Position numbers and translations under genes: made by a program. 64,000 nucleotides of DNA from positions 8,211 to 72,210 of the forward strand of contig CALRMO020000001.1 in NCBI GenBank assembly GCA_943369235.1. Reading direction: 5' to 3'. The notes beneath the pieces were generated by a model. It made no database searches. It saw nothing but the letters and a program-made list of their open reading frames with translations, and was not told where the DNA came from. Origin of the DNA: Sphingomonas paucimobilis (GTDB lineage Bacteria; Pseudomonadota; Alphaproteobacteria; Sphingomonadales; Sphingomonadaceae). Within the stretch, counting starts at the first letter, position 1; every line of letters starts with the position of its first letter. This document shows positions 6,950-42,444 of the stretch, piece after piece.

Positions 6950-9346
6950 TTAGCCTCGAAGAACTGCACCCGATTTCGCAGCCGCAGCGACAATCCTGTC
7001 GCTGATCGCCTTTAAATCGTCATCGCCATAACTTTTGTCGGTGGGTTGCAGCGTGACCATCACCGCAAGCGATTTCTTGCCTTCGGGGACACCCTGACCG
7101 AAAAACTGGTCGAACAGTGCAACGGACACGATATTGCCTTTGTCGGATCCCCTGATGGCGCGAAGCAGATCGTCGCTGGCAACGCCGATGTCGACAAAGA
7201 AGGCAAAGTCCCGCGTGACCGGCTGCAACGCTGGTGGAGCAAACGCCGTCCGCATGAAGCCCGGGTTTTTCTTTAACGGGATCGCGTCGAGATAGATTTC
7301 TGCCGCTATTACGGGTCCGTCGAGGTCGAAAATCTTTGCTGTTGCCGGATGCAGCGCGCCAAACGATGCCAGCACATTCTTCGGTCCCAGACGAAGCGTC
7401 GCTGACTGGCCGGGATGATAATGATCGCCATGCCCAGAATCGTCGAAGCCCATGACCATCAGGCCATCGGTCGCTACCCCTGCGGCTGCAAGCAGCGCAA
7501 CGACTTCAGCCTTGGCGTCATAAGCATCGAACTTGGCGGCTTTACCTGTTGCCCAACCGCGTCCGGTCTTTTCCCCTGCCAGCACGACGCCCGCAGTTAG
7601 CCGCTCACCATCGGCCAGATACCGGCGGCCGATTTCAAACAGCCGCACCGACGAAGCGCCGCGATCCATGTTGCGTTGCGCCGCCGAAAGCAGTCCGGGG
7701 AGCAGCGAGGGGCGCATCACCTTCATGTCTTCCGAAATGGGATTGGCGACACTGGCGTACCCGCCTGTGAATGCGTCAGCCTCCTTCTCGGGAATGAAGG
7801 ACCAGTTGATGGCTTCATTCAGGCCGCGCGCGGCGGCCGAGCGGCGTACCTTCCGCTCGATTTTCTGCATCGGCGTAGCGGTAGGTCGCGCCACGCCGTC
7901 AGCTCGCGGCAAAGGCGTCGATGGGACCTGATCGAGTCCGACCATCCGCACGACCTCTTCGACAAGATCCGCGCTGCCTTCGACGTCACGACGCCAGCTG
8001 GGCGGGGTGACTTTCCAATCTGACGTCACTGCAAAGCCGAGACTTTCGAGGATTTCGCGCTGCCGTTCGGGCGCCACATCGACTCCGCCGAGGCGCAAGG
8101 CATGTCCGGTGTCATAGGAAATGTTGCGCGGCGCAACTGGGGGCTTGCCGGCGCGTTTAACGCTGCTTGCGGTGCCGCCTCCATGTTCGAGCACAAGCTT
8201 GGTTGCAATGGCGAGGCCGTCGTCGAGGAAGGCCGGATCCACGCCGCGTTCGAAACGTTGCCGCGCGTCGCTGGTCAGCGCCAGTTTCTGCCCGGTGCGC
8301 GCAATATGTTCGGGGTCGAAATAGGCGCACTCGATCAGCACGTCTGTCGTGCTCTCGGAAACACCCGAATGCTCGCCGCCCATAATGCCGCCGATATCGT
8401 GGACTTGTCGCTCGTCGGCAATGACGGTCATGCTCGCGTCCAGCGTATAGGTCTTGCCGTTTAGCGCGAGAACCTGTTCGCCGTCCCTTGCCTTGCGCGC
8501 GACGAGCGACCCCTGCAGTTTTGCACGATCGTAAACGTGCAGCGGGCGACCCAGATCGATCGAGATGAAGTTCGTGATATCGACGAGCAACGAAATCGGC
8601 TTTTGGCCGATCGCTTTCAGCTTCGCTTGCATCCATGCGGGCGAGGCACCGTTCGTAACTTCCGATACCGCCTGCGCGTAAAATGCAGGGCAGCCCAAAG
8701 GATCGAGCGTGGCCACGTCGGGTGCGGGGTTGCTTCCCGCAATTGGCGCAAGTTCGGCCATCTTGTAGACCTCAGCGAGCGGACGAAGCGTTCCCAAACC
8801 GGCTGCCGCCAAATCGCGCGCAATACCGCGCACGCCCATGCAATCCTGCCGGTTGGGGGTGACGCTGACGTCGATAACCGGATCGTCGAGGCCTGCCCAG
8901 TCGGCGTAAACCTGCCCCACCGGCGCGTCGCTCGCGAGCTCGATGATGCCGTCATGATCGTCACCCAATTCAAGCTCGGCAATCGAGCACATCATGCCGT
9001 TCGACTCGACGCCGCGTATCGCCGCGACCTTTAGCACCATGCCATTCGACGGCACGGTCGCGCCTGCCGGAGCGAAGACGCCCAGCATCCCGGCACGCGC
9101 ATTGGGTGCGCCGCACACCACTTGCAGCGGTTCACCGCCAGCATCGACAGTCAATACCTGAAGCTTGTCGGCTTGCGGATGCGGCGCGGCGGTGATCACT
9201 TTGGCAATGCGGAAGGCAGCCAGTTTGTCGGCCGGATTTTCGATACTTTCGACTTCGAGGCCAATGCGGTTCAGGCAATCGGCAACGGCATTCACATCCG
9301 CATCGGTATCGAGATGCTCCTTGAGCCAGCTCAGCGAGAATTTCAT
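6950..9346 (-). CDS. pheT: Phenylalanine-tRNA ligase beta subunit
   Basis: [53 protein letters not shown]; 4 bp overlap with pheS. Confidence 0.98.
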
Positions 9347-10419
9347 GCGCCCACTCCCCCGCTCAACGTCGGCACGTCAAGCGCCCCGAAACCGTAATGC
9401 TTGAGCCAGCGCAAATCGCCGTCGAAGAAGGCGCGCAAATCGTCCATGCCATATTTCAGCATCGCCAGCCGGTCGACGCCCACACCGAAGGCAAAGCCCT
9501 GATAGACATCGGGATCGAGTCCGCAATTCGCGATGACCTTGGGATGCACCATGCCCGACCCAAGCAATTCCATCCAGCCTCCGGTCCCACCCAGAATGCG
9601 CTTGCCATTCTCGACCGAGAAGCTGACATCGACTTCAGCCGATGGCTCGGTGAAGGGGAAGTAGCTCGGGCGAAGGCGGATTGTGAGATCATCGCGTTCA
9701 AAAAAGGCCTTGAGGAACGTCTCCAGCGTCCATTTGAGATGCCCCAGATGAATGCCCTTGTCGATCACCAGCCCCTCGATCTGGTGAAACATCGGCGTAT
9801 GCGTTGCGTCGCTGTCGCTGCGATACACACGGCCCGGCGCGATGATCCGGATCGGCGGCTCCTGTGACGTCATGGTGCGAATTTGGACAGGAGACGTGTG
9901 CGTTCTCAACACCTTGGCTTCTTCGCCTTCTGCGGCCACCATGTAAAAAGTGTCATGCATCGCCCGAGCCGGATGCGTTTCGGGCATGTTGAGCGCGGTA
10001 AAATTGTGCCACTGATCCTCAATCTCCGGGCCTTCGGCAACGGCAAAGCCCATGTCGGCGAAGATTTCGGCAAGTTCGTCCATCACCTGGCTTACCGGAT
10101 GGACGCTACCACGCGGTGTTTCGGGCGCGGGCAACGTCATGTCCAGCCGCTCGGTCGCGAGCCGCTCGTTCAGCAACGCGGTTTCGAGCGCGGTCTTTTT
10201 CTCCGCCAGCGCCGCAGTCACTGTTTCGCGCAGACCATTGATGACCGGCCCCTGCACCTGCCGTTCGTCCGGCGACATTGCACCCATCGTCTTGAGCAAT
10301 GCCGAGACGGTCCCCTGCTTGCCCAATGCAGATATGCGCACCGCGTCCAGCGCATCGAGCGTGTCTGCCGCTTCGATGGCCGTTATCAAACCAGCCTTTA
10401 GACTTTCAATTTTAACCAT
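9343..10419 (-). CDS. pheS: Phenylalanine-tRNA ligase alpha subunit (start at 10419, or 10428 inside the REP)
   Basis: [48 protein letters not shown]. Confidence 0.98.
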
Positions 10420-10422
10420 TGT

Positions 10423-10454
10423 CGTCATTCCCGCGAAGGCGGGAATCCAACTCC
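10423..10454 (+). repeat. CGTC-tagged REP, downstream arm of the GIY-YIG cassette
   Basis: CGTCA-TTCCCGC-GAAG-GCGGGAA-TCCAACTCC; 28/32 identical to the reverse complement of 10805-10836. Confidence 0.9.
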
Positions 10455-10469
10455 CGCGCTTTCATAAAT

Positions 10470-10793
10470 TCACAACTTCCGCGATGGCAGAGGCGGAAAG
10501 CCCAAATCAATCGACAAATCTTGCCAATTGGGGTTTTCGGACTCGATCATGTTTATTTTCCATTGCCGGTTCCATTTCTTAATCTGCTTTTCGCGCGTAA
10601 TTGCGGTTTCGATCGTTCCGTACAGCTCATACCAAACGAGCATTTTAACCCCGTAGTCGCTCGAAAATCCGTGAAACGCTTCTTCACGATGTTGCTGAAT
10701 GCGTTGCATCAGATGTGATGTAACCCCGACATAAAGCGTTCCGTACCGCCTGCTTGCCAGAATATAGACCGTCGGCTGAAAGTTTTCGTGCAT
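10470..10793 (-). CDS. Small stand-alone GIY-YIG nuclease (107 aa)
   Basis: VYILASRRYGTLYVGVTSHLMQRIQQHR and AITREKQIKKWNRQWK; the ORF-track extension to 10898 runs through the REP. Confidence 0.92.
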   Translation of the reverse strand: MHENFQPTVYILASRRYGTLYVGVTSHLMQRIQQHREEAFHGFSSDYGVKMLVWYELYGTIETAITREKQIKKWNRQWKINMIESENPNWQDLSIDLGFPPLPSRKL

Positions 10794-10804
10794 CGGCAAG
10801 GTCC

Positions 10805-10836
10805 GGAGTTGGGTCCCCGCCTGCGCGGGGATGACG
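10805..10836 (-). repeat. CGTC-tagged REP, upstream arm of the GIY-YIG cassette
   Basis: Minus strand CGTCA-TCCCCGC-GCAG-GCGGGGA-CCCAACTCC; compensatory T-A to C-G change versus the other arm. Confidence 0.9.
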
Positions 10837-10852
10837 AGAGTTATCTGCATAA

Positions 10853-10894
10853 GCAAAAGGGCGCGAACGGCAAGTGCCGCCCACGCCCTTTTGC
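10853..10894 (-). terminator. Intrinsic terminator after rplT
   Basis: 11 bp stem GCAAAAGGGCG / CGCCCTTTTGC with an inner CGGC/GCCG hairpin. Confidence 0.7.
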
Positions 10895-10916: not shown

Positions 10917-11282
10917 TTAAGCTGCTTTAGACAGCGCCGCCTTCGACTGCGCAATGATGGTGCTAAACATCGCGCCTTCGTTCATCGCCAGATCGGCAAG
11001 GATTTTGCGGTCGAGATCGACGCCAGCAAGCTTCAGCCCGTGCATGAACACGCCGTAGGTCATGCCTTCGGCACGAACGGCGGCGTTGATGCGCTGAATC
11101 CACAAAGCGCGGAAGTTGCGCTTGTTTACCTTGCGGTCGCGATACGCATATTGGCCGGCCTTTTCGACAGCCTGCCGCGCAACACGGATGGTATTTTTGC
11201 GACGGCCACGAAAGCCCTTCGCCTGATCCAATATTCTTTTATGTTTGGCGTGAGTGGTTACACCCCGTTTGACGCGTGCCAT
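10917..11282 (-). CDS. rplT: 50S ribosomal protein L20
   Basis: MARVKRGVT...[23 protein letters not shown]. Confidence 0.99.
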
Positions 11283-23009: not shown

Positions 23010-23121
23010 TGTCATTCCCGCGAAAGCGGGAATCCATGGCGTGACATTTCAAAGGCTCACCGCATAGTTGGTCAAGACGGGATAAGGCAGACCATGGATC
23101 CCCGCATTCGCGAGGATGACA
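23010..23121. repeat. REPIN-like doublet of TGTC-tagged REPs (112 bp)
   Basis: Arms 23010-23039 and 23092-23121, 26/30 inverted identity, 52 bp spacer. Confidence 0.9.
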
Positions 23122-25177: not shown

Positions 25178-25247
25178 TTCTTTGTGTCTTTGGCTGAGAT
25201 TATGTTTTTAGCCTGCGCTTTTTGGTTCGCACAAAGACACGATGAAG
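25178..25247. repeat. Two back-to-back arms of the octamer inverted-repeat family
   Basis: 25178-25202 reverse complement TAATCTC-AGCCAAAG-ACACAAAG; 25226-25247 TTC-GCACAAAG-ACACGATG. Confidence 0.7.
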
Positions 25248-25327
25248 GAAGGGATTTAATTTGTATAGTGTCCCCGGAATTGTCGCGTGACGGCGGGGGT
25301 GATTACGGCGGAGGTTAGGTTGGCGGC

Positions 25328-31975: not shown

Positions 31976-32120
31976 TAATCTCACGCAAAGACGCTAAGAC
32001 ACAAAGAAGGAAAAAGATTGCGCGAAACGCCTTTTGGGTTGATTTCCGAGGCAGTGAAAAAGCAGAGATAGCGGACTCCACTTTTACTCTTCTTTGTGTC
32101 TTCGCGTCTTTGCGTGATAA
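31976..32120. repeat. Octamer-armed inverted-repeat element, 145 bp MITE-like copy
   Basis: Arms 31981-32009 and 32089-32117 are 28/29 inverted identical; three octamers per arm; left end TAATCTC. Confidence 0.88.
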
Positions 32121-42333: not shown

Positions 42334-42444
42334 TGTCATCCTCGCGAAAGCGGGGATCCATGGCCAGGGCTATCAGCGCTACACCAAGTTGTTGATTGAT
42401 GAGGCGCAATCAGGCCATGAATTCCCGCTTTCGCGGGAATGACA
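42334..42444. repeat. REPIN-like doublet of TGTC-tagged REPs (111 bp)
   Basis: Arms 42334-42365 and 42413-42444, 28/32 inverted identity, 47 bp spacer. Confidence 0.9.

Follow-up and report, generated by a model that had tools for sequence, protein, structure and literature searches.

Between rplT and pheS in the window, by which we mean the whole 64-kb stretch of DNA that was analysed, lies a 414-bp unit in which one small gene is enclosed by two inverted hairpin repeats. On the minus strand the order is rplT (10917-11282), a hairpin with 20-nt arms (10853-10894), the unit itself (10423-10836) and pheS. The features of the locus are given below, together with two related repeat pairs found elsewhere in the window.

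9343..10419, minus strand: pheS, which probably starts at the ATG at 10419, to judge from alignment of congener N-termini
10423..10454, plus strand: left Ssn-related motif (CGTC-tagged REP, subtype B), with 1 mismatch to the NTS consensus
10470..10793, minus strand: ssn, which encodes an Ssn-family GIY-YIG nuclease of 107 aa with a single domain (ORF with N-terminus MHENFQ, PF01541 match, SsnA homology)
10805..10836, minus strand: right Ssn-related motif, in the opposite orientation to the left motif and with the tag outward, with 4 mismatches to the NTS consensus
10853..10894, minus strand: terminator-like hairpin after rplT, an inverted repeat conserved across the genus, which forms the other edge of the insertion site
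10917..11282, minus strand: rplT, next to the ssn unit on its upstream side and co-oriented with it (ORF, tblastn)
23011..23120, no strand assigned: gene-less head-to-head doublet of subtype A (tail TCCATGG, tag TGTCAT), which folds as one long hairpin
42335..42443, no strand assigned: gene-less head-to-head doublet of subtype A, missing in eight congeners that retain both flanks

A first-pass annotation, made by reading the letters of the window, had described a 107-aa GIY-YIG gene between two inverted 32-bp CGTC repeats of 28/32 identity, had placed this 414-bp unit between the rplT terminator hairpin and pheS, and had pointed to two gene-less doublets of related repeats. All of these features were recovered, the doublets at 23011-23120 and 42335-42443, and the pheS start was refined to 10419. 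An inverted-repeat search returned 40-nt arms at 10422-10461 and 10798-10837 that are 83% complementary. The 32-nt cores within them are CGTCATTCCCGCGAAGGCGGGAATCCAACTCC (10423-10454) and CGTCATCCCCGCGCAGGCGGGGACCCAACTCC (10836-10805, reverse complement), and since they differ at 4 positions the identity of 28/32 is correct. Both copies consist of a CGTCAT tag, a G+C-rich stem of 7-8 bp, a 4-nt loop and a CCAACTCC tail, and the left motif has the 8-bp stem ATTCCCGC/GCGGGAAT. The left stem reads TTCCCGC/GCGGGAA and the right stem TCCCCGC/GCGGGGA, a difference at one position, so the compensatory change from T-A to C-G that had been claimed for the stems is real. Folded as single-stranded DNA, the two hairpins that flank ssn reach -8.9 and -9.2 kcal/mol.

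The unit reaches almost to the start of pheS. The N-termini of congener PheS proteins align with M4, the fourth codon of the longest pheS ORF, which makes the ATG at 10419, 3 nt from the CGTC tag, the probable start; the ATG at 10428, which lies within the repeat tag, is probably not the start. This second ATG, supplied by the tag CGTCAT, is in frame and precedes the probable pheS start by three codons (window 10419-10428), and gene callers are therefore prone to start pheS within the repeat. The ribosome-binding region of pheS must be located in the repeat stem. A scan of the window sequence found no obvious ribosome-binding site or promoter at the ssn start codon, and ssn is probably expressed by read-through from rplT. 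On the rplT side, the hairpin at 10853-10894 was not flagged by a simple terminator scan and is called terminator-like because of its position and conservation alone; the congener comparison finds it kept in empty and occupied sites alike.

The 107-aa protein has one Pfam match, to the GIY-YIG domain (PF01541, E=5e-15, residues 8-81). An NCBIfam search with the protein gave no meaningful match, and a PDB sequence search for a close solved relative returned best matches at E about 0.6-0.7, among them the UPF0213 protein 1zg2. The informative comparison was with SsnA, the 94-aa single-domain GIY-YIG protein (CDD cd10448, GIY-YIG_unchar_3) that belongs to the Ssn family of single-domain GIY-YIG nucleases described by Chenal et al. 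2025 (Nat Commun 16:2388, PMC11893778). The reference used here was the N. gonorrhoeae orthologue (L062) and not N. meningitidis CAX49033.1; it is a 94-aa ORF in which Y6 and Y17 are present and which has NTS repeats around the gene. The window's Ssn is 63% identical to it over 93/94 residues, ungapped, with E=5e-44. In this ungapped alignment Y10, Y21 and E68 of the window protein fall on Y6, Y17 and E64 of SsnA, the residues that Chenal et al. mutated, and none of the three varies among five sequences from congeners and paralogues. Chenal et al. counted as homologues proteins with E<1e-10 over >75% of the length, and in a strict version 60% identity; with the N. gonorrhoeae orthologue as the reference, the window protein falls within even the strict version. 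The gene has the marks of the Ssn family, which are a single domain of ~90-110 aa, homology to SsnA, the Tyr/Tyr/Glu set and repeats on both sides. It is very likely that the Ssn locus is what it appears to be, a small GIY-YIG endonuclease gene enclosed by two inverted recognition repeats (the NTS/SRM hairpin, or CGTC-tagged REP), and sequence comparison demonstrates its family identity and its architecture. With the GIY-YIG homing endonucleases of the I-TevI type, Ssn shares the catalytic domain and the look of a small selfish gene. It differs from them in lacking both a separate domain for DNA binding and an intron, intein or free-standing phage context, and in its intergenic position between rplT and pheS; homing endonucleases also cut dsDNA, whereas Ssn homologues cut ssDNA.

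Pairs of window-type Ssn genes, compared with congener orthologues, have dN/dS values of 0.07-0.14, and one ungapped pair of type A genes has 0.02. To judge from these ratios, the ssn genes are maintained by strong purifying selection. An in-frame stop was seen in each of three congener Ssn genes, at G055:C6:22097-22384 (TGA), G053:C91:5387-5692 (TAG) and G041:C1:638930-639241 (TGA). All three lie within intact repeat pairs, and they may be decaying copies or sequencing errors in metagenome-assembled genomes (MAGs).

The repeats resemble two published families. In Neisseria, roughly every second dRS3 repeat belongs to NTS, an oriented element of greater length whose consensus is CGTCATTCCCGCGMAVGCGGGAATCYRG (PMC11893778). 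The left repeat has 1 mismatch to this consensus and the right repeat 4, and both window repeats, which are of type B, deviate from the published SRM pattern only at the last of its degenerate bases. As in the Ssn/NTS system of Neisseria, the window has a ~100-aa single-domain GIY-YIG protein, 63% identical and with the catalytic residues at equal spacing; the repeats have a CGTCAT tag, a ATTCCCGCG stem and a C after the palindrome; and the layout is NTS-ssn-NTS with outward tags, with many gene-less copies in the genome. The two systems differ in the 13 extra C-terminal residues of the window protein, in the presence here of three paralogues in one genome, each with a private repeat subtype, and in the repeats themselves, which here number ~50 copies, mostly in regular head-to-head doublets, and in pathogenic Neisseria number hundreds and are clustered.

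The second family is that of the CGTC-tagged REPs defined by Di Nocera, De Gregorio and Rocco 2013 (BMC Genomics 14:522, PMC3733652), which are commonest in Alphaproteobacteria, including sphingomonads, and occur mostly as head-to-head dimers with CCA tails. Their family CGTC-1 includes Neisseria dRS3 and Rickettsia RPE-6. The repeats of this genome share with CGTC-1 the CGTC or TGTC tag, an 8-bp stem that starts with A-T pairs (A-T, then T-A), a 4-nt loop, a CCA tail and the head-to-head dimers. Di Nocera et al. saw no dedicated enzyme for them: CGTC repeats 'apparently lack a dedicated transposase', and no RAYT was found flanked by CGTC repeats (PMC3733652). Here the comparison differs, because Ssn is now a binding and cutting partner and, as a mobilising enzyme, at most a candidate.

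The genome-wide count that the first-pass annotation had proposed was made on the assembly (2.77 Mb, 251 contigs, 57.6% G+C). It gave ~50 repeat copies, most of them in ~25 head-to-head doublets of 85-110 bp with the tags outward. Across the genome the tails share the consensus TCCA, and the tags read CGTCAT or TGTCAT; the GTAG tag, a feature of REP/REPIN-RAYT systems, was not found at the palindrome end, where the tag is CGTC or TGTC. The copies were classed by their inner tail. Subtype A has the tail TCCATGG and mostly the tag TGTCAT, subtypes B and B' have the tails TCCAAC[TA]CC and TCCATCACC with the tag CGTCAT, and subtype C has the tail TCCCGC. The subtype A doublet at 23011-23120 folds at -27.4 kcal/mol (z=-4.4), and the one at 42335-42443 is gone from eight congeners in which both flanking genes are retained. 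The 10 nt on the 5' side of the GTCA tag, at window 10413-10422 and in every genomic copy, are strongly G-poor: the count of G per position is 0-6 in 49 copies versus ~14 expected, and positions -3 to -1 before the repeat tag are mostly T. Either the conserved unit reaches past the tag, or insertion favours such sites.

Three Ssn paralogues with 47-53% mutual identity are encoded in the genome, and 3/3 are flanked by repeats, each by a different subtype. The window Ssn lies inside an apparent subtype B doublet, the paralogue on contig C171 has subtype C flanks, and the paralogue on contig C177 lies between two complete subtype A doublets. The first-pass annotation had cautioned that another copy might serve the doublets with CCATGG tails, and the C177 paralogue, flanked by repeats of the CCATGG type, bears this out. 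Elsewhere in the genus, 14 further loci of the two types were found, and the association of gene and tail holds throughout: all window-type Ssn genes lie in a ~409-bp (+)gene(-) unit with B/B' tails, and all C177-type (type A) orthologues lie in a 364-366-bp unit with TCCATGG tails.

Flanking was also evaluated across phyla, as had been suggested. An alignment of five Ssn proteins was searched against one genome per species and gave 80 loci from many phyla, including one from N. gonorrhoeae; the closest relatives in named genomes were from Sphingomonadales. The motif stood on both sides of the gene at 40/80 loci, on one side at 21/80 and on neither side at 19. The published figures for ssnA homologues across phyla are 71% with at least one NTS-like motif (SRM) nearby and 42% with motifs on both sides (PMC11893778). 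Motif density is 3.7/kb within 200 bp of an Ssn gene and 0.10/kb farther away, a 38-fold enrichment over the 80 loci, and the commonest arrangement is that of the window, with both tags outward.

The copy number of each subtype was then compared with the presence of each orthologue in 41 genomes of the genus, several of which are incomplete MAGs, using statistics that ignore phylogeny. Subtype A has 4-31 copies in the 8 genomes with its cognate Ssn and 0-10 in the 33 without (Mann-Whitney p=2e-5), and subtype B/B' has 0-53 copies in the 9 genomes with its cognate Ssn and 0-13 in the 32 without (Mann-Whitney p=2e-4). Subtype A counts did not track the B-type orthologue (p=0.12; 41 genomes), and reversed-pattern controls gave 0 matches in the 41 genomes. 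In these 41 congeners the copy number of each subtype follows the presence of its own Ssn orthologue. The flanking of all three paralogues, the enrichment at the 80 loci and the 63% identity to SsnA support the GIY-YIG nuclease as the specific partner of the CGTC-tagged repeats, as the first-pass annotation had suggested.

A trivial reading of the hairpins would have them serve rplT and pheS as ordinary terminators or attenuators, with a small gene between them by accident. The site does adjoin a conserved terminator-like hairpin, and REPs are often found near terminators, but the repeat core occurs 6 times in the 64-kb window versus 0 times in 100 dinucleotide-preserving shuffles, and the silent reversed-pattern controls, the 38-fold enrichment beside Ssn genes and the flanking of 3/3 genomic paralogues all speak against it. 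We regard chance as practically negligible.

The first-pass annotation had further described the system as lacking a RAYT, which, taken literally, does not hold for the genome. One Y1_Tnp (PF01797) gene is encoded, in the region 2157-3010 of contig C202 (226 aa, E=1e-10), and it leaves room for a reading in which a Y1 transposase of the RAYT or IS200-like kind services the CGTC repeats, with the GIY-YIG gene as a bystander. Tandem and inverted copies of GGGGACACAATACTAATTAG / GTGTCCCCGGAAT stand on each side of the Y1_Tnp gene, and no CGTC repeat was found beside it, which excludes it as partner of the CGTC repeats; nor did Di Nocera et al. 2013 find any RAYT with CGTC flanks (PMC3733652). A RAYT as the partner of the CGTC repeats was rejected because of the C202 flanks, and the bystander reading is very improbable. 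Counts of the C202 repeat came to about 12-30 copies, the figure of about 30 being spread over 8 contigs, with a solitary copy at about 25256-25280 of the window, and the gene and its repeat look like a second, classical system of the REP-RAYT type in the same genome. No RAYT with the same REPs as ssn was found elsewhere in the genome, the sole Y1_Tnp having the other repeat.

Like a REP/REPIN-RAYT system, the Ssn system has an enzyme gene between inverted hairpin repeats that are recognised as ssDNA, dispersed gene-less doublets, co-occurrence of enzyme and subtype, and an enzyme gene that is mostly single-copy and vertically inherited. Unlike it, the Ssn system has the GIY-YIG fold and not HUH, the tag CGTC and not GTAG, and no covalent tyrosine chemistry for strand transfer. 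The flanked enzyme is a GIY-YIG protein, where a REP/REPIN-RAYT system would have a Y1 HUH transposase (PF01797) with the same repeats.

Comparison with relatives gives the history of the site. About 13 congeners and every outgroup family have an empty site, with a 15-16-nt spacer from the rplT hairpin to the pheS start; such empty sites in relatives had been put forward in the first-pass annotation as something to look for. Six genomes carry an Ssn unit at rplT|pheS, two with B tails (G000 and G016) and four with B' tails (G003, G023, G007 and G053), and the G053 copy has a stop codon inside. Three genomes have a solo repeat at the site, with a tail like that of the window's pheS-proximal repeat. 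In a two-gene tree, which took in five occupied genomes and left out G053, found later, the occupied G000, G016, G003, G023 and G007 fall in three clades with empty genomes between them. The distance from the repeat to the pheS ATG is 3, 0 or 6 nt in the three occupied groups. These comparisons point to an ancestral rplT|pheS that was empty, followed by several gains or by interspecies exchange of the region; the two-gene tree is thin, and the number of gain events is not claimed. The ssn unit is an insertion relative to the ancestral state of the genus. No target-site duplication or exact boundary was resolvable at rplT|pheS, where the 15-16-nt spacer is too diverged between empty and occupied sites. 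Across the genus, window-type units occupy at least 4 distinct genomic contexts. Seven congeners have the type A unit in a syntenic position, whereas its flanks are different in this genome, and Ssn units vary in presence and absence at several loci. Both pairing and insertion are demonstrated in this way, by comparison among genomes.

What the window's enzyme does may be anticipated from its homologues. Ssn enzymes have been characterised from Neisseria, N. elongata, N. wadsworthii and Wolbachia. SsnA binds NTS as ssDNA only, and its cut falls a few bases upstream of the NTS; the enzyme is inactive on the reverse strand, on duplex DNA and on RNA; the Y6A, Y17A and E64A mutants keep binding and lose cutting; and the bases around the palindrome matter for both cutting and binding (PMC11893778). 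We infer the biochemical action of the window Ssn, including its cleavage specificity, by analogy with these homologues at 63% identity. Binding to the repeat would require the CGTC-tagged strand to be single-stranded and in its hairpin fold, and the nick would fall in this strand, a few bases to the 5' side of CGTC. The predicted cuts fall just left of 10423 on the plus strand and just right of 10836 on the minus strand. By homology with the characterised enzymes it would ignore dsDNA and RNA, and the ~50 other genomic repeat copies, mostly in head-to-head doublets, would be further substrates. Each paralogue probably prefers its own repeat subtype, because the subtypes differ in the first base of the tag and in the tail and because repeat-adjacent bases matter in the published enzymes (PMC11893778).

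Such an enzyme might copy and spread the repeat doublets as a RAYT does for REPINs, in which case the unit would be a minimal autonomous mobile element. In favour of this are the insertion of the unit at rplT|pheS and the occurrence of related units in at least 4 genomic contexts. Gene-less doublets vary among congeners, as with the 42335 doublet that is missing in eight, the copy number of each subtype follows its own Ssn orthologue, and the gene-bearing unit shares its outward-tag geometry and its tail with the subtype B doublets. The same idea is found in the Discussion of Chenal et al., where NTS-ssnA-NTS is likened to insertion sequences and to RAYT/REP and Sphingomonas is listed as a repeat-rich host (PMC11893778); propagation of the repeats by Ssn was raised there and not tested. 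Several observations weigh against it. Neither several near-identical copies nor target-site duplications, the hallmarks of an IS or autonomous transposon, were found: no Ssn units are near-identical within the genome or between loci, the paralogues being at most 53% identical, so nothing suggests that the gene-bearing unit has transposed recently, and no target-site duplication was resolved. The synteny of the type A unit in seven congeners indicates vertical inheritance. The two tags are on opposite strands, so that each single strand has one cuttable site, and since SsnA does not cut the reverse strand, single-strand excision in the style of IS200/IS605 is not directly implied. A bare GIY-YIG domain also has no known strand-joining activity. 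On this balance the unit may be such a replicator, and we hold the idea tentatively.

The other reading takes Ssn to be a domesticated, restriction-like system against ssDNA that would tune recombination or uptake by cutting incoming or exposed strands at the repeats, with the repeats having arisen or spread by other means. Deletion of ssnA in N. meningitidis raises transformation about five-fold, for NTS-bearing DNA only (PMC11893778), and both the strong purifying selection on the ssn genes and the stable synteny of the type A gene, a trait of host-maintained genes, fit a role in the host. This reading leaves unexplained why the gene is regularly enclosed by its own inverted sites, why each paralogue has a private repeat subtype and why the unit is found at different loci, and natural competence is not established for this organism. 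A host function seems a serious possibility, a little short of an even chance. The two readings are not mutually exclusive, and we put spread of the repeats by Ssn at roughly one chance in three and a host role at somewhat better than that.

The first-pass annotation had inferred that the pairing of a GIY-YIG nuclease with REPs would be a different nuclease-REP replicator. The pairing of enzyme and repeat, the resemblance to RAYT/REP and the NTS-ssnA-NTS architecture had already been published in March 2025 (PMC11893778), so that the locus serves mostly to confirm a known system and to extend it. New for this lineage are the three Ssn paralogues with their own subtypes, the co-occurrence, the empty and occupied sites, and a RAYT with its own repeat. 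That a GIY-YIG nuclease, not a RAYT, partners the CGTC REPs answers the question of Di Nocera et al. from 2013, an answer published in 2025. The genus makes a natural test bed, having several Ssn lineages with private subtypes and empty, occupied and decayed versions of one site. This is material for asking if Ssn spreads repeats, and a source of nuclease-site pairs for ssDNA tools. The private subtypes, the co-occurrence, the repeated occupancy of rplT|pheS and the units at 4 or more loci all fit propagation driven by Ssn. That each paralogue propagates its own subtype of CGTC-REP doublet is an idea which these genus data fit without demonstrating, and which we consider possible though on the doubtful side. 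If it were true, the repeat-ssn-repeat unit of 0.37-0.41 kb would be the smallest autonomous mobile element known, and the HUH RAYTs would be joined by GIY-YIG as an independent second class of enzyme that drives REPIN-like repeats.

Two minor observations concern other palindromic elements. A separate MITE-like family with CACAAAGAC-rich arms is found in the window at 2172-2240, 25178-25247 and 31976-32120; a link of this family to the RAYT repeat or to the CGTC repeats was considered and dropped, the sequences being unrelated. At one congener locus (L022, G010:C43), a palindromic insert of ~75 bp, GTCATCCCCGCC...GGCGGGGACGA, lies between the rplT stop and the terminator hairpin. It seems that the rplT-pheS intergenic region receives hairpin repeats quite generally.
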